DNA of 64,000 bases from Longimicrobiales bacterium (GTDB lineage Bacteria > Gemmatimonadota > Gemmatimonadetes > Longimicrobiales > Gaopeijiaceae), in NCBI GenBank assembly GCA_965203485.1, contig OZ241892.1, positions 512,001 to 576,000 of the forward strand. The letters are read 5' to 3'. A program made the position numbers and the translations under genes. Shown here one piece after another: positions 1 through 9,530 of the stretch. The notes below the pieces were generated by a model. It ran no database searches, was not told where the DNA came from, and saw only the letters and a program-made list of their open reading frames with translations. Every line of letters begins with the position of its first letter. The first letter of the stretch is position 1.

Positions 1-375
1 CGTGCTGATCTGCCCTTGGAGGCGGGCCAGAAACTTGCGACGGACGGGGCCGTCTTCGTGCAACGCCAGGGCCTCGGCCGTGTCGGGCTGGGTGACGGAC
101 AGGAAGCCCGCGAGCTGGGCGATATCCACGCAGTGCTCGCGGTCGTAGTCGCGGGGGTCGCCGCAGAGCCAGCCGGAGCCCCGGCGGGATTGGCCGTTGG
201 GCGCGCCGGCCTCGTAAGCAGACCGAGGCTCCCCCGCCCGGAAAGGGGATGCGCGGCCGTTGCTGGGTGCGTTGCCGGCGCCGTCGTTGCCGCCAGCTTC
301 CGGATCGCAGGGCGAGCCCGTCATGGCGGCGCAGATCAGCCGTTCAAGGCCGCGTTCGGTGGTGTCGGTGGGCAA
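1..375 (-). CDS. hsdR: Type I restriction endonuclease subunit R, N-terminal part (runs off window start)
   Basis: My translation from TTG at 375: (M)PTDTTERGLERLICAAMTG...GWLCGDPRDYDREHCVDIAQLAGFLSVTQP...RRKFLARLQGQIS, a typical HsdR N-terminus. In-frame TAG upstream at 403-405; co-oriented with hsdM/hsdS. Not in the ORF track because it is partial. Confidence 0.85.
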   Translation of the reverse strand, partial: MPTDTTERGLERLICAAMTGSPCDPEAGGNDGAGNAPSNGRASPFRAGEPRSAYEAGAPNGQSRRGSGWLCGDPRDYDREHCVDIAQLAGFLSVTQPDTAEALALHEDGPVRRKFLARLQGQIST

Positions 376-571: not shown

Positions 572-1735
572 TCAGGAAGCCGTCCTCGCGTGCGCCAGCA
601 GTTCCTGCCCGCTCGCGCAGTCGATGACGAGATCGGCGACCTCGGCGAGCCGCTCTGAAGCGGAGACCTCCTCCAACAGCGCGCCAAGCTCCTTTGCCGT
701 CTCCGCGTCGAACTTCCGTCGCGCCAAGCGCACCAGGGTCGCCCGGCGCTCGAGCAGAGCACGCGCTTCGGCTTCCTGGCGACCTTCCTGCCGGCCTTCC
801 TCGCGGACTTCCCGGCGAACCTCCTCGCGGACTTCCTCGCGAACCTCCTGGCAAACCTCCTCGCGGACCTCCTGGCGGACCTCCTCGCGGACCTCCCGGC
901 GGTTCTTCTCGCGGTCCTCCGCCAACCAAATCTGTGCGACCCCGCCCGTCAGGTCGCCCATCTGCTTCACCTTTGCCACGTCCTCCTCCTTTGCTCCTTG
1001 GTCGATCATCAAACTTCGCACCCACGCCACCAGCCCCTCGCGCGCCGCGCTGTCGCGGGGCAGCAACGCCCTCAACACCGGCAACGCCTCCTCAACCTCG
1101 GCGCTGTTCGCCGCGTAGCGCAACTTCAGCGCCGCCTCGCGCGCCGTCGTCCCGCGCTCGATCTCCCGCGCCTCTTGCGCCTCCGACACGAGCACGAACT
1201 GGTGGCCGAGCGCGAACGGAAGGAACGCCTTCGCCTCGTCGGCCAGCAGATCCTCGAGCCGCGCCGGCGCCGTCCACCGCTCCGGCCCGACGTGCACGAC
1301 GATGGGCAGCACGGGCGGCAACCCGCGCGTCCGGCTCGCCTCTTGGCTCTTGGCCAGGTAGTCGTAGGCCAGGGCCGTCTCGAGCAAGATGCGCACGGCC
1401 ATTCGCCAGTCCGACGCCGCCTGGAACTCGAAAAGCAAGACGACGTAGAGCCACGAGTCGCGAAACGGCGCCCGCCACACGAGGTCGGCGTGGCGCGACG
1501 TGCGCAACTTGGGATCGACGTGCTCGGTCGGCGCCGGCTGGAGACCCTCGAGGTCGATGCGGTCGGCGACGCTGGCGGGGACGACCTTGCCGAAGACGTG
1601 CTTGGCCAGAAACTCGGCGACGATCCGCTTCTCGCGGTAGACGAGCTTGGCGCTCTTGTCCAGCGGCTGGTGGGCAGGCGGTTCGTCGTCCGGCTCGGGG
1701 TCGAGACGGCGGTCTCGGGGGCTGATGGGCGTCAT
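572..1735 (-). CDS. Rpn family recombination-promoting nuclease / putative transposase (YhgA-like, PD-(D/E)XK)
   Basis: Motifs RHADLVW...LLFEFQ...WRMAVRIL and LPPVLPIVVHVG..W; C-terminal EGRQ-type repeats and LVRLARRKF tail. ATG at 1735 preferred over 1948. Confidence 0.85.
   Translation of the reverse strand: MTPISPRDRRLDPEPDDEPPAHQPLDKSAKLVYREKRIVAEFLAKHVFGKVVPASVADRIDLEGLQPAPTEHVDPKLRTSRHADLVWRAPFRDSWLYVVLLFEFQAASDWRMAVRILLETALAYDYLAKSQEASRTRGLPPVLPIVVHVGPERWTAPARLEDLLADEAKAFLPFALGHQFVLVSEAQEAREIERGTTAREAALKLRYAANSAEVEEALPVLRALLPRDSAAREGLVAWVRSLMIDQGAKEEDVAKVKQMGDLTGGVAQIWLAEDREKNRREVREEVRQEVREEVCQEVREEVREEVRREVREEGRQEGRQEAEARALLERRATLVRLARRKFDAETAKELGALLEEVSASERLAEVADLVIDCASGQELLAHARTAS
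776..895 (-). repeat. 10 x 12-bp in-frame tandem repeat (EVRE/EVRQ/EGRQ)
   Basis: Protein reads EVRE EVRQ EVRE EVCQ EVRE EVRE EVRR EVRE EGRQ EGRQ; + strand units such as ctcgcggacctc. Confidence 0.9.
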
Positions 1736-2189
1736 GGACGTTGCGCCGGGGACGTGAACAAGGGCGGGCGCGCCCCCGGCCAGGCGGCGCTGGCCACGGA
1801 TTCGCCGTGCAAGGCTTCCGGAAGAAGCGTGCCATAAGACGGTCGCTGTCCGACGCCAGAATGCAAATGGCGGAATGGGACCCGTTGCATGTCCAAATGG
1901 GTCGATGACGGAAACGCCTCCGGCCAAGCGGTCGCCGATCGGCTTCATCCGGGGCTCGATGCGGGTTGCGAGGCGCGACGGGGCGAACCTGGTTCCTGGA
2001 AGGCTGAATGGTCGCGCCCGGCCGGACGCCCGCAGCTTTGACGGATGCCGGTTGCGGCTTTAAGCTTGCTGGTCCATGCGGTCCGCCCTCCCAGGCGGGG
2101 CGAACGAAATTCTGGACGTGTCGATTCGATTGCGATGCCAACGAAGCCGTCGTGGATCACCCAATCATCCAACGGGGCCTGGAACCAAT

Positions 2190-2954
2190 ATGATTGACGA
2201 AGTTCAACGCCTCGTGGACCAATACTGGAACTGGTTGCAGGAGCAGACGACAATCCGGGAGGTCGGAGACCACGTCGAGATCACGACTCCCTACCTGGAC
2301 CGCCACAACGACTGCTTCCAGATGTATGCTCGCCGACGCGAAGATGGATTCATCCTTACGGACGACGGCTACGTGCTCAACGACTTGGCGCAGGCCGGCG
2401 TCGACGCAACCAGCGGCAAGCGCGGATTGTTGCTGGAGGAAACGCTCAACGGCTTCGGGGTCCGGGAAGTCGCGGGTGCGTTGCAAGTGGAGGCGTCGCC
2501 CGAAGACTTCGGCCTGCGAAAGCACAACCTCCTTCAGGCCATGCTCGCTGTTTCCGACATGTTCTACTTGGCGTCGCCGACGGTCGAAAGCCTGTTTCAC
2601 GAAGACGTGATTGCGTGGCTCGACACGTCCAGCATCAGATACACGCCGAACGTCAAGCTCTCCGGCAAGAGCGGCTTCGACCACAAGTTCGACTTCGTCA
2701 TTCCGAAATCGCCGGATCAGCCCGAGCGAGTGTGCAGGTCCATCAACCGTCCCGACCGCAACGCGGCGCAAACCATGGTCTTCGCGTGGGAGGACACCAA
2801 GGAAGCTCGCGACCCCAACACTGTAGCCTACGCCATCCTAAACGACGCGGATCGGTCCGTATCACGGTTTGTCGACAAGGCACTCGAAAGTTACGATGTG
2901 CGGCCGGTCCGCTGGTCGACCCGCGAGGAAGCGATAAAGAAGCTAGCGGCATAG
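2190..2954 (+). CDS. DUF1828/DUF1829 domain protein
   Basis: MIDEVQRLVDQYWNWL..EITTPYLDRHND..LTDDGY and GKSGFDHKFDFVIPKS..FAWEDT, characteristic of this family; ATG at 2190. Confidence 0.8.
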   Translation: MIDEVQRLVDQYWNWLQEQTTIREVGDHVEITTPYLDRHNDCFQMYARRREDGFILTDDGYVLNDLAQAGVDATSGKRGLLLEETLNGFGVREVAGALQVEASPEDFGLRKHNLLQAMLAVSDMFYLASPTVESLFHEDVIAWLDTSSIRYTPNVKLSGKSGFDHKFDFVIPKSPDQPERVCRSINRPDRNAAQTMVFAWEDTKEARDPNTVAYAILNDADRSVSRFVDKALESYDVRPVRWSTREEAIKKLAA

Positions 2955-3092: not shown

Positions 3093-4679
3093 TCACGCCG
3101 CGGTCTCTATGTTCGTGCCGGCGATCCCTCGGACGTCCACCTTGCCGGTCACCACGTCGGAGATCAAGCGGGTTCGGTACTCGCGGAGCAGCTCCATTTC
3201 CCGGCGTGCGAGTTCTGCCGCTCTGTCGATCTTGGCGGTTTCGCGGTCGAGGAACGCACCGATGGCCTCCTGTTCTTGCCGTAACGGAAGAGGTATGACC
3301 AAGTGCTTCAGTCCGCTAGCGTAGATGTGCATTACCGTCACTCCACGTCCCATACAGGATTTCTGCCAGGAAGCATGTGCACAATCAAGCGCGTATCCAC
3401 TGAACACGGGATTCAATGCGCCAAAATTTGGTCGAAAGACTATGACATCTCCACTGCAACATGTATGTTCGCGGAGGAGAGTTGTGACTGATTTGCCAAT
3501 GTCGTCGAGCGTTTCGCCTGATCCGGCGAAGAGTACATCTCCATACAAAACTTGCGTGTAGCCCTCGCTCACCTGTTCCGATACAAATCCGAAAGGTGTC
3601 CTGACATGACGGTCGTACATCGTGTAAATGTCTCCGTAGCGTATGCATGGAACACCCGTCGTCGATCTGTCGTTGCGTGTGCCACCTGAGCCTTTGAAGA
3701 AGTCCCCGAACGTCCCGAGTGGTTTGACTTCCCAATGCTCCGGCACGTCCCCCAGCCACTCCACTCCGCTCGGCTTGAGTTTCGGATGCGGATCGAATCC
3801 GGCCTTGCGCGCCTCGTCGGGCGGAAGTCCGCGTGTCACGGTCCGGCTGACGAGGACGGTGCGGTGTTCATCGAGTCTCTCGACCAGAATCTCCTTTTGG
3901 CGAATCAAGGCGTCGATCTTGGCGGTTTCGCGGTCGAGATAGAGGACTATTGCACACGACTCGGAAGGAGTGGGCAAGGGTAATCGCAAGTTGCCAATCC
4001 AGTTCCAACTGGCTCTTGGCATTCTAGCACCAGAAGTGCGCAGGTTTACGTTGTCGATAAAACCGGGGGTCAGCAACGCATACAGGAGATAGCTTGCATA
4101 ACTCGAAGGATTTCTTTCCCTAAGAACAATAAACTCGGATGAACACAAGCCGTCAGCATCAGGACGGCATGCCTTGGCCAAGTAGGGGCGCAACTTGCCA
4201 AACAGAATGTCACCAGCGAGGAATGGAGCAAATGACGAGTTTCGATCTGCCGAGTGAGGGACAGGCGTCTCGAGTAGCCTACCGGTCCACGACTCAACCG
4301 AGTCCATGCCTACATGCAGAGGCTTGCCGATCGAGTCCTCAACATCGTGCTTGTTGTCAATCCTTGACAATACGCGCTGTAGTGGTTTGACCTCCCAATG
4401 CTCCGGCACGTCCCCCAGCCACTCCACTCCGCTCGGCTTGTACTTCGGATACGGCATGAGGTCCAATGCGCGGGCTGCCCCGTTCTCCGATTGCAGGGTC
4501 TTCGGCGATTTCACCTCGGACATCAGTCGACGCAATGTCGGGTCCGTGTATTCTTGGGACAGACGCCACTGTTGAATGTCGTCGGCCGTCATGTGTTCAA
4601 GCTCTTTGCCGATGCGGTCTCGGATCTCGCGCAGGTGCTTGACGTGGGTGAAGGGCCGATCGTCGGCGGAATCAGTCAT
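3093..4679 (-). CDS. hsdS: Type I RM specificity subunit with N-terminal antitoxin-like extension
   Basis: Two KPSGVEWLGDVPEHWEVKPL conserved blocks, two TRDs, two LDRETAKID helices, C-terminal EYRTRLISDVVTGKVDVR. The first ~70 aa are paralogous to 4672-4890. Confidence 0.92.
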   Translation of the reverse strand: MTDSADDRPFTHVKHLREIRDRIGKELEHMTADDIQQWRLSQEYTDPTLRRLMSEVKSPKTLQSENGAARALDLMPYPKYKPSGVEWLGDVPEHWEVKPLQRVLSRIDNKHDVEDSIGKPLHVGMDSVESWTGRLLETPVPHSADRNSSFAPFLAGDILFGKLRPYLAKACRPDADGLCSSEFIVLRERNPSSYASYLLYALLTPGFIDNVNLRTSGARMPRASWNWIGNLRLPLPTPSESCAIVLYLDRETAKIDALIRQKEILVERLDEHRTVLVSRTVTRGLPPDEARKAGFDPHPKLKPSGVEWLGDVPEHWEVKPLGTFGDFFKGSGGTRNDRSTTGVPCIRYGDIYTMYDRHVRTPFGFVSEQVSEGYTQVLYGDVLFAGSGETLDDIGKSVTTLLREHTCCSGDVIVFRPNFGALNPVFSGYALDCAHASWQKSCMGRGVTVMHIYASGLKHLVIPLPLRQEQEAIGAFLDRETAKIDRAAELARREMELLREYRTRLISDVVTGKVDVRGIAGTNIETAA

Positions 4680-4890
4680 CGGGCTCTGCCGACTGCCTTG
4701 AACGTGTAGGCGACTTTGGCTTGGCTCTGGACATCAGGCGGCGTAGTTTCGGGTTCTTGTATTCTCGAGACTGGTGCCACCGATAGGCCTCCTCGGCCGT
4801 CATGTGTTCGAGCTCCTTGTTGATGCGATCTCTGATTTCGCGGAGGTGCTTGACGTAGCTGAAGGACTTCTTGTCCGTAGGTTCAGTCAT
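4672..4890 (-). CDS. 72-aa small helical protein, putative antitoxin partner of the PIN domain
   Basis: F..VKHLREIRDRINKELEHMT resembles small proteins encoded right after SWNFKH-type PIN genes; overlaps both neighbours by 8 nt (ATGACTGA). Confidence 0.7.
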   Translation of the reverse strand: MTEPTDKKSFSYVKHLREIRDRINKELEHMTAEEAYRWHQSREYKNPKLRRLMSRAKPKSPTRSRQSAEPDD

Positions 4891-7333
4891 GGTGCTCGAT
4901 CTCCCGTGGTGAGCGGATGTCGATGGATTGGTGTTCCCGGACGACGTTGACGGAGTTGCATATCTGGATTCGCCGGGCGTTCACGATGTGCTTGAAGTTC
5001 CAGCTGACCAAGACGTCGGCCTCGGCGAGCGTGGCCAGCGCGATGTGCTCGGCGTCGGCCTGCATCGACGGCGCCAGGGCGCCCGCGTCAATATAGGCCA
5101 GGGCAAGGCGTTCCGCGTCTTCCGACGCCTGGACCTCCTCTATGTGCGCGTCCGGGACCTGCTCCAGGACGTCTTGGACCTCCTGTCTTGCGCCTTCGAG
5201 TTCCGTGGCGGTTAGGTGCGACAGAAGCAGAACGTGCTCTCCCCGACCGAAGGCCTTGAACAGACGGCATGAGGGCTCCCGGAACTCTTCGTCGAAGCAC
5301 CCGCCCACGACGGTGGTGTCCACGTAGACCCGCAATCGCGCCCCGTAGGGCATCGGCCGGGGCTCGGCCACGAGCGCCGCCAGCAGGGCGTTGGACTTTC
5401 GGCGCACCGAACGGATGTCGGCTCGGATCGCGCGCAACGGCCGCATCGGCTTCGGCTTGTAGAAGTGGCGCGCGAAGTTGATCTCGTAGCCGGTCTTCAC
5501 CGAGTTGGGACGGTGCCAGGCGTCCGGCGCGTAGGGCAGGACCTCCCGGCGGAGAAAGGCATCCACGCCGCCCTCCTCCGTCAAGGGAACCCGCTCGGTG
5601 TCGCGAAGGTCGGGGTCCGGCTCGTACTCGACGACGGCGGGCGTTCCGTCCACCTGCGCCTCGAACCGGCCCACGAGCGCGTCGGCATCGACGCCCGTCT
5701 TCCACGCCCGCCGAATCACGGGCGCCGCCTCCGGGTCCCGCTCGCCGTCCTCCTTCAGGCGCTTGATCTCCGCCGCCTTGTAGACGCGCCCGGGCTCGGC
5801 CCCGGCGATCCGCAACGGCCGCTCGACCGTCGCCTTCGCGTATCCGAAGGCGTCGTTCGGGAAGATCTTCGACTCGTCCGTCTCCTCGAACGCCAGGAAG
5901 ACGTCGCACACGCGCTGGGCGTCCTCGTCCGACAGCTCGCAGTTCTTCTTGCCCAAGTTCTTGCGCAACGGCGTGAACCACCGGGTCGCGTCGATCAGCT
6001 GGACCCGGCCGACGCGATGTTCGGGCTTGCGGTTGGTCAGGACCCAGACGTACGTGGCGATGCCCGTGTTGTAGAACATGTTCAGGGGCAGCGCGACGAT
6101 CGCCTCGAGCCAGTCGTTCTCGATCATCCAACGGCGGATGTTGCTCTCGCCCTGGCCCGCGTCGCCGGCGAACAGCGAGCTGCCGTTGTGGACCTCGGCG
6201 ATGCGGCTGCCCAAAGTCGTGCTCTGCTTCATCTTGCTCAGCATGTTGGCCAGGAACAGCATCTGGCCGTCGCTGACGCGGGTCGCCAGCGAGAACTCCG
6301 GGTCGCGGCCGTGCTCGACCACGAACCGGGGATCGCGCATGTCGCGCTTGCCGCCCATGCGCTGCAAGTCGCTCTTCCAGCTCTTGCCGTAGGGCGGGTT
6401 CGACAGCATGAAGTCGAACTCCTTGTCGGGGAACGCGTCGTTGGACAAGGTCGAGTGCTCGGGGCCGCCCACGATGTTGTCGGCCGCTTCGCCTTCGCCC
6501 TTCAGCAGCAGGTCGGCCTTGCAGATCGCATAGGTCTCGGCGTTGATCTCCTGGCCGTACAGATGCGTGGCCACCTTCTTGCCGCGCTCCTCGGCCAGCG
6601 CCTGCAACGTCTGCTCGGCCACGGTCAGCATGCCGCCGGTGCCGCACGCGCCGTCGTAGAGCAGATACGTGCCGTTCGCGATCTCGTCGGCCACCGGCAG
6701 GAACACGAGCTTGGCCATCAGCTTCACGGCGTCGCGCGGCGTCCAGTGCTCGCCGGCCTCCTCGTTGTTCTCCTCGTTGAAGCGCCGGACCAGCTCCTCG
6801 AAGATCGTGCCCATGCCGTGGTTGTCGAGGCCGGGATGCCGCACCGTTCCGTCGGGCTTGAGCACGGGCTCCGGTCCCAGGTTCACGTCGGGCGACGTCA
6901 GCTTCTCGATCAGCGAGCCCAGCGCGTCCGCCCTGGACAGGCGCGGAACCTGGTTGCGGAACTCGAAGTTGTCGATGATCTCCTGGACGTTGGGCGAGAA
7001 GCCGTCCAAGTACGCCTCGAAGTCGGCCCGCAGCCGTTGCTGGCTGGCCCGCGCCTTCAGGTCCTGCATCGTGAAGGGCGACGCGTTCCAGAACGCTTGG
7101 CCCGCCGCCGCGCGCAGTCCGCCGTCCTGGTTCGCGACGCCGGCCTCGTCCAGCATGGCTTTCCGCTCCCGCACGGGCTGCTTGGTCGGCTCCAGCACCG
7201 CGTCCAGCCGGCGCAGGACGGTCATCGGCAGGATCACGTCGCGATACTTGCCGCGCACGTACAGGTCCCGCAGCACGTCGTCGGCGATGCCCCAGATGTA
7301 GTTCGCGATCCAGGCCAGCTGAGCATGATCCAT
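4883..7333 (-). CDS. hsdM: Type I RM m6A methyltransferase with C-terminal PIN domain fusion
   Basis: IWGIADDVLRD N-terminus, GEHWTPR, DGACGTGG (SAM binding), NPPY (catalytic), YEINFARHFY end of HsdM; then, in frame, RVYVDTTVVGGCFDEEF...ADAEHIALA...VSWNFKHIVN (PIN). Confidence 0.93.
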   Translation of the reverse strand: MDHAQLAWIANYIWGIADDVLRDLYVRGKYRDVILPMTVLRRLDAVLEPTKQPVRERKAMLDEAGVANQDGGLRAAAGQAFWNASPFTMQDLKARASQQRLRADFEAYLDGFSPNVQEIIDNFEFRNQVPRLSRADALGSLIEKLTSPDVNLGPEPVLKPDGTVRHPGLDNHGMGTIFEELVRRFNEENNEEAGEHWTPRDAVKLMAKLVFLPVADEIANGTYLLYDGACGTGGMLTVAEQTLQALAEERGKKVATHLYGQEINAETYAICKADLLLKGEGEAADNIVGGPEHSTLSNDAFPDKEFDFMLSNPPYGKSWKSDLQRMGGKRDMRDPRFVVEHGRDPEFSLATRVSDGQMLFLANMLSKMKQSTTLGSRIAEVHNGSSLFAGDAGQGESNIRRWMIENDWLEAIVALPLNMFYNTGIATYVWVLTNRKPEHRVGRVQLIDATRWFTPLRKNLGKKNCELSDEDAQRVCDVFLAFEETDESKIFPNDAFGYAKATVERPLRIAGAEPGRVYKAAEIKRLKEDGERDPEAAPVIRRAWKTGVDADALVGRFEAQVDGTPAVVEYEPDPDLRDTERVPLTEEGGVDAFLRREVLPYAPDAWHRPNSVKTGYEINFARHFYKPKPMRPLRAIRADIRSVRRKSNALLAALVAEPRPMPYGARLRVYVDTTVVGGCFDEEFREPSCRLFKAFGRGEHVLLLSHLTATELEGARQEVQDVLEQVPDAHIEEVQASEDAERLALAYIDAGALAPSMQADAEHIALATLAEADVLVSWNFKHIVNARRIQICNSVNVVREHQSIDIRSPREIEHHD

Positions 7334-7383: not shown

Positions 7384-8088
7384 CTACGCCGGCGCGCCCC
7401 CAACGCCAACCCGGTCGATTCCGTGGCGGTCGGACGGGGATTTGCGAGTCCGCATCTCCGACGCTAGTTCCTGCTCCAGCCTTCGTTGTTCCTTCGTTGC
7501 GTCCGCTTCCGCCACGATGCCGGCCCCCACATACGCCCGTACCGCTTCCGCCACCGATTCCACCTGAACGACGCGCGTGAGCTCGTCATCTCGCGCCGAT
7601 CGCCAGTGAAGCGCCACGCCGACGTCAGGCGCCACTTGCAACTCTGGCCTGCCCAACGGGTCTTCTTTCTTGAGCGTCGTCAGTAGCACGGCAGCCCCTC
7701 GCCACACTTCCACGAACCGGTCCCGCTCCTCCCTGCCCGGCATTTTGCCGCGTGGCTCGCGCTGGATTTCAGCGTGGGCTGGGTTCTCCGGTATAGGTCG
7801 GTCCGTGACGCTCCAAAGCCGGTGTCCTTCCGCATCGGTCAGCATGCGGATTTCTGCCGTCCTGGCCTTGATCGTGCCCCGCATGCCGCGACCGCCCATG
7901 ACTGCTTGCACATGGTGACTCCGGTCGACCGACGCACCGCCTTCCTCTTTGGTCCACCGGAGCGCTCTACGCGGAAACGCAGATCGAGGGACAGCTCCGC
8001 TACCCGTCTCTCGCGCTCCAGGGGGTAGCCGTCTCTCCAGTTCTTCGTTGTCATCAACCACCCCAAGCGCGTGTGCTCCCGGGCTCAT
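7384..8088 (-). CDS. Putative ADP-ribosyltransferase-fold toxin with C-terminal extra domain
   Basis: Pattern VDDNEELERR...AF...GASVDR...TAEIR...VTDRPIPENPAHAEI resembles small ART/RES-like toxins (R...S-x-D-R...H-A-E); recognised by eye only. Confidence 0.55.
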   Translation of the reverse strand: MSPGAHALGVVDDNEELERRLPPGARETGSGAVPRSAFPRRALRWTKEEGGASVDRSHHVQAVMGGRGMRGTIKARTAEIRMLTDAEGHRLWSVTDRPIPENPAHAEIQREPRGKMPGREERDRFVEVWRGAAVLLTTLKKEDPLGRPELQVAPDVGVALHWRSARDDELTRVVQVESVAEAVRAYVGAGIVAEADATKEQRRLEQELASEMRTRKSPSDRHGIDRVGVGGAPA

Positions 8089-8127
8089 TCCCTCAGCCGG
8101 AAACTTCTCCCCTCGCTTGACCAGGTC

Positions 8128-8688
8128 TCAGACCTCCCCGTGCATCTCTTCCAGCCAAGACATGACCCGATCAAGTTCTTCTCGGCTGTGTTCCACAAAG
8201 CGTCCCTCCTCGCTCTCTTCGCTCAGTGTGCGGCTGATGTAATAGCCGACGGTGCCGTTTTCTTCCGTGCCGATCTCGACCCTGCCGTATCCACTCCGCC
8301 AGATGATGCAGATCTCCCACGCCTCGTCGGCGTAGACCTCGTCGGGTTGCTTCCATGCGTCACGCAACCCCAGCAACGCAGCGATGCGATTCCTGTTGAT
8401 CTCAATCTGCGGCATGATCCCTCCCTTGACTTGGGCCGCTCGCAAGGTGTCGGCGTCGATTGTGTCCAGGATCTCTCGCGTCGTCTTGGCTTCCTGTCCG
8501 CTACCACTCGTGTCAATTCCTCCAAGACCTTTCTCATCTATCTGCCATGTAGTGGCATTTCCAAGTGCTACGGTAGTGTCTTCTTCCTGTCTGGGCGGTG
8601 ACAAACGACTTGATCCTCGCCTTGCTACGTAGCGTCCGTGTCTCAATCCCACGTCGGGTACTGATGCGATCATCCCGGCCGTGGTCAT
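8128..8688 (-). CDS. Hypothetical protein, putative antitoxin
   Basis: ATGA overlap with the upstream gene; low-complexity N-terminus; C-terminal P..V..D....I.WRS...VEI..E.NG.V.YY beta-rich domain. Confidence 0.6.
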   Translation of the reverse strand: MTTAGMIASVPDVGLRHGRYVARRGSSRLSPPRQEEDTTVALGNATTWQIDEKGLGGIDTSGSGQEAKTTREILDTIDADTLRAAQVKGGIMPQIEINRNRIAALLGLRDAWKQPDEVYADEAWEICIIWRSGYGRVEIGTEENGTVGYYISRTLSEESEEGRFVEHSREELDRVMSWLEEMHGEV

Positions 8689-9530
8689 ATCTGCCCTCCC
8701 GGTTGATTCATTCCGATCCGCTTGGCGATGTCTTCGGTGACCAGGTTCCCGAACAATGCATGGATGCGTCGATGCAGTTTGTCGTATACAGCTCGGCCGT
8801 TGCTCTCGCTCTCATCGACAGAATGAATTTTCCCGAACGCCCTGTCGAGCCTCAGGCGCGCTGTTGTTTCTCGAAATCCCCAGATCGCGGTTGTCTCCAC
8901 CTTGACGATCGGACGGACCTTCTGTCCCTCCGCACGCAGTTCTGCCCCTATCTGAAACCGCTCCAGGATACGTTGCCCGTCGGGATCTTCAATCCACCCT
9001 TCCCCTATGTGCCACATCTTCGAATTCCCGGCTTTCGACGGTATCCGTTCTTCCCGGACTGCGAGCTTTGGATCGTAGGTGGCATCAGGGCCGTGCCAGA
9101 CGAACATGTCTTGGTAGGTGAGCCCAGCACTGCAAACCTGTGCGAGCGGATGGTCGTTCCCAAGAACCTTTCCTACGCTGGCAAACAGCTCGTAGGCCTT
9201 TTCGCTCACGCTCTTCCATCCCCCGTACTGAGCGCATCCGATTGTGATTGTCGGCCCGGCGACCTCCATCCACCACGCGGCCTGGCCCGTGCGCTTGAAT
9301 TCAACGTACTGCGTGGGCGCCAGCGGCTTTGGCCTGTCGTCCACAAGGGGCGTCGGGCCCACCGCGATCTCCATCACATGGCCACGCCTCACCGTCGGCA
9401 GCACGGCCTTCCAGTAGTTCTCGTAGCCTTCGTCCAGCTTCGCTCGCTCGTGCTCCGTCATCTCGCCACTTCCGGTGAGGCGGAAAATCACGGCCTCGAT
9501 GGCGTGATCTCGGTGCAACGGCTCAAACAT
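8685..9530 (-). CDS. TIGR04255-like family protein
   Basis: HAIEAVIFRL N-terminus, YGGWKSV, AGLTYQDMF, C-terminal LHRRIHALFGNLVTE..KRIGM; GGAGG upstream of the ATG. Confidence 0.7.
   Translation of the reverse strand: MFEPLHRDHAIEAVIFRLTGSGEMTEHERAKLDEGYENYWKAVLPTVRRGHVMEIAVGPTPLVDDRPKPLAPTQYVEFKRTGQAAWWMEVAGPTITIGCAQYGGWKSVSEKAYELFASVGKVLGNDHPLAQVCSAGLTYQDMFVWHGPDATYDPKLAVREERIPSKAGNSKMWHIGEGWIEDPDGQRILERFQIGAELRAEGQKVRPIVKVETTAIWGFRETTARLRLDRAFGKIHSVDESESNGRAVYDKLHRRIHALFGNLVTEDIAKRIGMNQPGGQI

Follow-up and report, generated by a model that had tools for sequence, protein, structure and literature searches.

An in-frame fusion of a VapC-fold PIN domain to type I HsdM, with a predicted inhibitor encoded next to it

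In a 64,000-nucleotide stretch of a Longimicrobiales genome (contig OZ241892.1, positions 512,001 to 576,000; hereafter the window), the methyltransferase gene hsdM belonging to a restriction-modification (RM) system of type I continues into a PIN domain, a gene for a 72-aa protein follows, and a second copy of this small protein stands at the head of HsdS. The locus raises the question of what a toxin-like nuclease fold does on a DNA methyltransferase and whether the small protein restrains it. A sequence-only reading had proposed a PIN/antitoxin module split over two RM subunits and held in check by their assembly. The HsdM-PIN architecture is found here to be real, conserved and apparently undescribed. 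The reading preferred, to which we give about an even chance, is that type I HsdM has acquired a PIN/antitoxin cassette open to exchange, which would render the locus addictive and may also give it a back-up.

The HsdM-PIN fusion and its small partner

Three minus-strand open reading frames (ORFs) encode HsdM-PIN, the small protein and HsdS, neighbouring frames overlapping by 8 nucleotides each (Table 1). HsdM runs without a stop into the PIN domain, as had been stated from the sequence: the ORF 7333-4883 was confirmed and independent contigs bridge the junction. The contigs come from public runs, three of the four runs compared being labelled marine or sponge metagenome; no RNA run is listed as containing the locus. 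Those of run X4, possibly the source sample, cover 4984-6122 and 4411-4855 with zero differences; run X5 supplies a gap-free contig over 4679-5980, and a divergent contig of run X6 (4266-5464) crosses both the HsdM-PIN and the HsdS junction without gaps. The suggested mapping over both junctions encountered no difference in the X4 contigs and no gap in the X6 contig. An assembly artefact is ruled out by the bridged junctions and by the recurrence of the fusions in other clusters and GTDB loci. The related idea that translation proceeds from internal starts only was answered differently for the two genes. The linker ATG at 5353 is unconserved, with 33 of 58 distinct linkers devoid of Met and 25 of 58 having one, at varying positions, within 16 residues before PIN; production of PIN solely from this ATG is unsupported, a statement that concerns ATG codons and leaves GTG or TTG starts possible. 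The Met75 position of HsdS is Leu or Val in 6 of 14 extended proteins (compared at the protein level, without codons), and an internal HsdS start there is possible.

The C-terminal 152 residues of the window protein matched no Pfam, NCBIfam or PADLOC model, the PADLOC and NCBIfam libraries containing no model for this PIN, and PDB sequence searches with the domain gave no match. The proposed hidden Markov model scan nevertheless bore out the assignment through relatives, 51 of 76 of which, when aligned, match Pfam PIN. The AlphaFold2 model of the domain has a pLDDT of 91.5. In structure comparison VapC toxins are the best matches, with Z scores of 10.8-12.6 (top match Z 12.6, root-mean-square deviation 2.6 Å, 127 residues aligned), Foldseek concurs, and the processing nucleases Nob1, Utp24 and SMG5 follow at Z 7-10. 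The active-site positions claimed earlier are conserved throughout the 62 fused PINs: D672, E711 and N779 in all 62 and D760 in 61. Judged by its sequence, the PIN domain looks active. The ratio of nonsynonymous to synonymous substitution rates (dN/dS) between the window and locus L111 is 0.185 for PIN and 0.161 for the methyltransferase, and in other pairs with a PIN dS below 0.8 it is mostly 0.1-0.3 for PIN; the HsdM-PIN fusion is under purifying selection. In 54 of 56 fusions the PMR motif of HsdM and the YxD motif of PIN stand 40-42 residues apart. As a separate observation, the C-terminal helix of HsdM (5369-5450, minus strand) is Arg-rich in the window's clade and acidic in plain HsdMs, and the Arg-rich helix may pair with an altered surface of HsdS or of the partner.

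The expectation that the fusion should occur in other genomes was borne out. In a GTDB scan the best 80 of 537 confirmed stretches were taken, which makes all counts on fused loci lower bounds, and 44 of these 80 carry PIN sequence in frame with the HsdM tail. The 44 loci belong to five phyla (Acidobacteriota 20, Gemmatimonadota 18, Pseudomonadota 4, Latescibacterota 1, Spirochaetota 1); 37 show no damage, and in the other 7 PIN or methyltransferase is disrupted. A protein search found the fusion in 25 clusters among 26 matches, and of 401 genomes drawn evenly from the window's phylum, 7, the window's included, have the junction and PIN in one open frame. Altogether the in-frame fusion is present in at least 62 distinct PIN sequences, with PIN identity down to about 46%. 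Several fusion records name Ca. Palauibacter and Ca. Multivorans, which we take to be sponge symbionts. Stand-alone proteins of the same PIN family, 150-160 aa long, are far commoner than fusions, and the best 80 matches of a metagenome scan are stand-alone PINs only. Within the 3.56-Mb genome no further copy of the PIN or of the small protein was found beyond the locus. Downstream, 43 of the 44 fused loci have hsdS, and 34 have hsdR no more than 7 kb away; with hsdR also open in the window's genome, a PIN replacing HsdR is ruled out. Some individual cases deserve mention. One genome record holds two HsdM-PIN loci, L137 and L147, with different partner types; at L013:1237-2121 and L014:1444-2229 a divergent PIN follows hsdM in another frame; and at L230:3572-4066 the PIN frame is off by one base near a short C run, which may be an assembly error.

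The small protein accompanies this PIN family almost without exception. Of the 44 fused loci, 43 have it directly after PIN. Among stand-alone PIN loci 112 of 116 contain it, and of the four without it three lie at contig ends. The gene order, PIN then partner, holds in fused and stand-alone loci alike, and of the 41 fused loci whose PIN end is complete, 40 have a partner start that overlaps the stop of PIN. The predicted fold consists of three short helices. No Pfam or NCBIfam match is common to more than 2 of 112 members, Foldseek gave no match, no VIA structural match reached Z >= 5, and in the ESM Atlas the partner falls into unnamed clusters only. In the complex model of the window's PIN with the free copy, the ipSAE is 0.86 against 0.00 for the best control, a mark reached by 116 of 157 solved pairs and 2 of 215 mismatched pairs. 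Model runs have at least 92% of contacts in common, with a partner pLDDT of at least 76. The modelled interface takes in E711, D760 and N779 of PIN together with the conserved R17 and R20 of the partner. The modelling check proposed earlier thus puts the partner where an inhibitor should sit, over the active site of PIN. Adjacency and the model together support the earlier prediction of an antitoxin, the small protein being the cognate partner of PIN and its likely neutraliser.

Apparent exchange of the cassette, and the copy on HsdS

The fusion is unevenly distributed over HsdM relatives. The 18 closest HsdM matches all have PIN sequence, and among the next-tier 102 HsdM clusters 90 are plain, 4 have a full PIN and 4 a truncated one. 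A methyltransferase-only tree with 156 rows has 17 changes of the fused label, of which starred branches force at least 10, and an approximately unbiased (AU) test with 36 rows, chosen after seeing the 156-row tree, rejects a single fused clade (p 4e-45). A single vertical origin of HsdM-PIN was rejected on these grounds. A tree of the PIN domain itself (183 rows, 147 columns, quick search) has 6 changes, 2 of them forced, and its resolution is too low to count fusion origins. The fixed spacing between HsdM and PIN suggests that a small number of junctions spread by recombination. In a comparison of 36 loci, the identity of the partners follows PIN identity (rho 0.67) more than methyltransferase identity (rho 0.47); in the pair L122/L135 the methyltransferases are 94% identical, the PINs 60% and the partners 44%.

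Fused loci are also richer in partners. Two to four copies are present in 14 of 44 fused loci, compared with 1 of the 76 stand-alone loci that have 1 kb of flank or more (kin counted as independent). Of 26 extra copies, 21 resemble the first partner of another locus more than that of their own. By sequence, most extra copies could be orphans that once belonged to other PIN variants. In L221, HsdM-PIN and its partner are followed by a second PIN, still preceded by some 23 codons from the HsdM tail and linker, and then by the partner type that stands first in L112. Within L221, positions 4113-5121 form an orphan module in which a partner is fused to the HsdM-tail remnant and to the intact second PIN, with a different partner type after them, and hsdS there is broken. 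Elsewhere, a PIN without the third acidic residue and a partner domain form one protein (L122:8153-9037, L126:8188-8907, L131:7878-8669, L158:9422-9982, L222:5419-6366); dead-toxin decoys or self-inhibited relics are possible interpretations. The hsd slots further hold GmrSD, DarTG, HNH, AlbA_2, PIN_10 and Phd genes, with a Pfam match in 25 of 56 ORFs scanned, and given this varied cargo they are therefore general defence hot spots. In the same slot, the HsdM of P0046 reads through into the N-terminus of a GmrSD/DUF262 gene.

The claim that HsdS opens with an in-frame paralogue of the 72-aa protein is correct. The HsdS ORF (4679-3093) encodes 528 aa, 74 of which stand before the usual start PYPKYKPSGVEWLG; the tethered copy is 54% identical to the free one over 68 aa, and this junction is bridged as well. 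The extension occurs in 13 other proteins, 14 with the window, and the target-recognition domains (TRDs) of most are different; five of the 13 come from contigs equal in length to one that bears an HsdM-PIN match. In nine extended HsdS proteins checked, 26-31 of 33 predicted interface positions are as in the window's free partner, so that by sequence many tethered copies in the window's lineage are of the cognate type. The window's own tethered copy agrees at 19 of 33 interface positions and deviates at 5 of the 10 highest-confidence contacts. Its dN/dS is 0.24-0.41, compared with 0.09 for the free copy, over 57 codons only, and in run X5 a 2-base insertion at 4574 ends it early (one contig, depth 31/31). 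The HsdS tether is real and local to one lineage. Of the 44 fused GTDB loci one carries it, and 30 contain just one, free partner. Five loci of the window's HsdM clade are genome-resolved, tethered in the window and L112 and untethered in L111, L158 and L221. In 314 genomes of the family, partner and HsdS lie in one frame only in the window and one other genome among the matches listed; the other matches spanning partner and HsdS have a TGA between the two, with 13 weak matches outside the listing.

The tether is geometrically plausible because the HsdM C-terminus and the HsdS N-terminus are close neighbours in EcoKI, according to PMC3510504. Of the module split over two RM subunits, what stands is that both fusions are real and recurrent and the geometry is feasible; as a general design it is unsupported, given the frequency of the tether. 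The search for co-occurrence of HsdM-PIN and extended HsdS had the same divided outcome, HsdM-PIN being found in all 44 loci and extended HsdS in just one. A further suggestion, that the M2S1 ratio explains why a second, free antitoxin is kept, does not hold as a general rule: with 1 of 44 loci tethered and 30 of 44 managing with a single free partner, the M2S1 stoichiometry needs no two copies, and one coupled partner gene would already supply about one inhibitor per PIN.

Proposed mechanism and competing explanations

The mechanism proposed here starts from the observed anatomy, distribution, selection and co-variation of the cassette and from the modelled binding of partner to PIN, with RNase toxicity, neutralisation, addiction, defence and orphan protection as its putative elements. 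A stand-alone pair of PIN RNase and small helical inhibitor would have become an in-frame extension of hsdM at its 3' end, and the joined module would move between hsdM alleles as an exchangeable cassette. Made together with HsdS and HsdR as in any ordinary type I enzyme, the methyltransferase would carry one RNase per HsdM, and the partner, translationally coupled to the PIN stop at about one per HsdM-PIN, would keep the RNase off. Should the partner supply fail, through loss or silencing of the locus or through a phage shutting down host translation, PIN would arrest the cell, which would render the RM locus addictive and provide a back-up to restriction. A new cassette would displace the old one and leave old partner genes, sometimes old PINs, downstream as orphans, and such orphan partners could protect against other PIN variants during cassette exchange. 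The HsdS copy would be an extra partner whose stop vanished in one lineage; it may add a local inhibitor and is probably dispensable.

Several points weigh against this proposal. The PIN is dispensable, as the 90 plain clusters among the 102 next-closest show, and among the 8 that do have PIN sequence 4 are cut short; the 7 of 44 fused loci broken in PIN or methyltransferase, some of which may be assembly errors, are not what a strictly addictive module, which should resist such damage, would lead one to expect. No DNA-binding domain is recognised in the partner, and the instability or autoregulation that addiction would call for is therefore an assumption; the toxin activity of PIN is predicted from sequence and model. 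The binding model may score through likeness to solved VapBC complexes. The copy-number contrast treats kin as independent, and L011, a stand-alone locus outside the count, has three copies. Finally, hsd slots gather many kinds of cargo, so the accumulation of partners need not be adaptive.

Among the alternatives, a guard that senses assembly is rather unlikely, yet it has definite arguments in its favour. Binding of inhibitors of the Ocr/ArdA type, or loss or swapping of HsdS, would displace the partner, which in this lineage is tethered to HsdS and elsewhere free, and release the RNase, as in PrrC/Ronin. Precedent exists in RonA, which is suppressed by HsdMS and triggered by ArdA/Ocr (10.1101/2023.04.06.535777), and the adjoining subunit termini of EcoKI (PMC3510504) would suit such a device. 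The near-fixed linker length also agrees with it, but one ancestral junction spread by recombination could account for the spacing too. Similarly, the tether persists in 13 other proteins despite TRD swaps, nine of them with a largely cognate interface, but it is confined to one of the 44 GTDB loci, most of which have a single partner; it is frameshifted in X5 and under lower constraint than the free copy. Moreover, the PIN/partner pair is found without a nearby hsd gene in 115 of 116 stand-alone loci. A wider proposal, likewise doubtful, makes HsdM the carrier and sensor of a polymorphic intracellular RNase, in which disturbance of M2S1 by phage DNA mimics or by HsdS exchange would unseat the inhibitor and kill, allele-specific inhibitor arrays would immunise against rival hsdM-PIN alleles, and in this lineage an HsdS-wired inhibitor would silence the toxin on assembly.

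The pair might instead be a selfish hitch-hiker that travels with a mobile defence locus and borrows the promoter and translation start of hsdM without benefit to the RM system, both read-throughs being tolerated accidents. We consider this unlikely. Frequent PIN loss and truncation, the variety of genes housed in hsd slots, the read-through from hsdM into other cargo (P0046, into a GmrSD N-terminus) and the unconserved PIN-hsd neighbourhoods described in section 17 of Matelska et al. (PMC5499597) all agree with it, whereas the frame is kept in at least 62 distinct PINs down to about 46% identity, adjacent but unfused cases are few and odd (the divergent PINs of L013 and L014, the one-base shift of L230), and partner arrays are enriched at fused loci. 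Very unlikely, and the explanation that fits least, is that PIN is an accessory RM nuclease acting on RNA, R-loops or flaps near bound sites, no toxin to the host, with the small protein as a regulatory or structural subunit. The PIN does sit on a DNA-bound enzyme, and PIN folds include the non-toxic processing nucleases Nob1, Utp24 and SMG5; however, VapC toxins are its best structural matches, the partner is modelled as docking over the active site, most stand-alone loci have the pair without hsd genes, and hsdR is retained.

Locus surroundings and relation to known systems

The frames of hsdM, hsdS and hsdR are all intact, and the gene content is that of a type I RM system. The Pfam domains HsdM_N and N6_Mtase span residues 9-487 of HsdM, and the methyltransferase motifs DGACGTGG (residue 227) and NPPY (residue 312) are intact. 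Table 1 lists the features of the locus.

Table 1. Coordinates of the HsdM-PIN locus and adjacent genes in the window
Feature	Position	Strand	Remarks
hsdM-PIN fusion gene	4883..7333	-	816 aa; PADLOC MTase_I 7e-231; 25 clusters share the fusion; contigs bridge the junction
Type I N6-adenine methyltransferase part, residues 1-655, ending in conserved C-terminal helix	5369..7333	-	motifs I and IV intact
Short linker from HsdM to PIN	5342..5368	-	PMR-to-YxD spacing near fixed; ATG 5353 unconserved
VapC-fold PIN domain, residues 665-816	4886..5341	-	predicted catalytic D672, E711, D760, N779
Free 72-aa three-helix partner, predicted antitoxin, without known family	4672..4890	-	start codon overlaps PIN stop
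Second partner copy and linker, residues 1-74, in frame with HsdS	4458..4679	-	lineage-restricted
HsdS core with two TRDs	3093..4457	-	TRDs vary among relatives that keep the N-terminal copy
DUF1828/DUF1829 gene between hsdS and hsdR	2076..2954	+	PADLOC candidate PDC-M24B, 1.5e-99; cargo outside the module
Rpn/YhgA-like nuclease gene between hsdS and hsdR	572..1948	-	cargo
hsdR start	1..375	-	1079-aa open frame in the genome, extends beyond the window

The Rpn/YhgA-like gene contains a repeated EVREE tract and has more than 10 tblastn matches elsewhere in the genome. Upstream of hsdM, three lower-GC genes (7384-9530, minus strand) may be further defence cargo; one of them (8685-9530, minus strand) has a weak TIGR04255 match and the other two have no family. 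A second type I hsdM/hsdS locus lies far off in the same genome (G000:C1:2658372-2661405), with no PIN match there. A scan for promoters and terminators gave results at chance level.

The usual view is that type I RM systems are not addictive, and their known guards (PrrC, Ronin) are proteins apart. If the exchangeable-cassette reading is true, a toxin built into HsdM in five phyla, with orphan inhibitors, would tie RM and toxin-antitoxin (TA) systems together physically and directly, and the cassette may make RM defence hard to lose or switch off. The analysis also defines an unnamed, very common family of PIN-first toxin/inhibitor pairs, predicted as such with a confident complex model, and the natural cognate and non-cognate pairs make specificity, addiction and anti-anti-restriction testable with few constructs. 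The earlier impression that no system of this architecture had been described agrees with a literature search, which found no HsdM-PIN fusion, most subscription papers and supplements being outside its scope.

Compared with classical type I RM enzymes (EcoKI, EcoR124I; R2M2S1), the locus has the same open hsdM, hsdS and hsdR, the same intact methyltransferase motifs and two TRDs swapped among relatives; it differs in the 152-aa C-terminal PIN of HsdM, in the partner gene between hsdM and hsdS and, in this lineage, in the partner copy on HsdS. With VapBC type II TA systems it has in common the VapC fold, an acidic active site, a small partner modelled over that site and translational coupling. 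Unlike VapBC, in which the antitoxin gene lies upstream of the toxin, the toxin gene here comes first and is fused to a methylase, the three-helix partner has no recognised AbrB, RHH, Phd or HTH DNA-binding domain and no known family, and the fourth active-site residue is Asn.

PrrC/EcoPrrI and Ronin likewise have a toxin encoded in or beside the hsd operon and potentially restrained by the RM system (PMC12707154 and 10.1101/2023.04.06.535777). In those systems the toxin, PrrC or RonA, is a protein of its own that the RM subunits themselves inhibit, with a demonstrated trigger, whereas here the PIN toxin would sit covalently on HsdM with its own dedicated predicted inhibitor. PIN genes at type I RM operons were reported by Matelska et al. 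2017 (PMC5499597, section 17), in which PIN-like TA genes are co-transcribed with hsd genes; in that section, Supplementary Figure S7 aside, which could include such a fusion, these are neighbouring genes in unconserved arrangements and not HsdM fusions, and the section states that a direct TA-RM interaction had not yet been shown. PIN-GNAT-EVE proteins have also been linked to type I loci, as separate genes, in PMC7641849. There is also a parallel in organisation with polymorphic toxin systems, which have cassettes and poly-immunity arrays (PMC3482391) and combine a constant N-terminal carrier, an exchangeable C-terminal toxin, an adjoining cognate inhibitor and downstream orphan toxin/inhibitor modules, all of which have counterparts here. 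The carrier in the present case is a cytoplasmic type I methylase with no N-terminal secretion or delivery domain, a single PIN family is involved, and the conflict would be intragenomic or directed against phage, not waged between cells.

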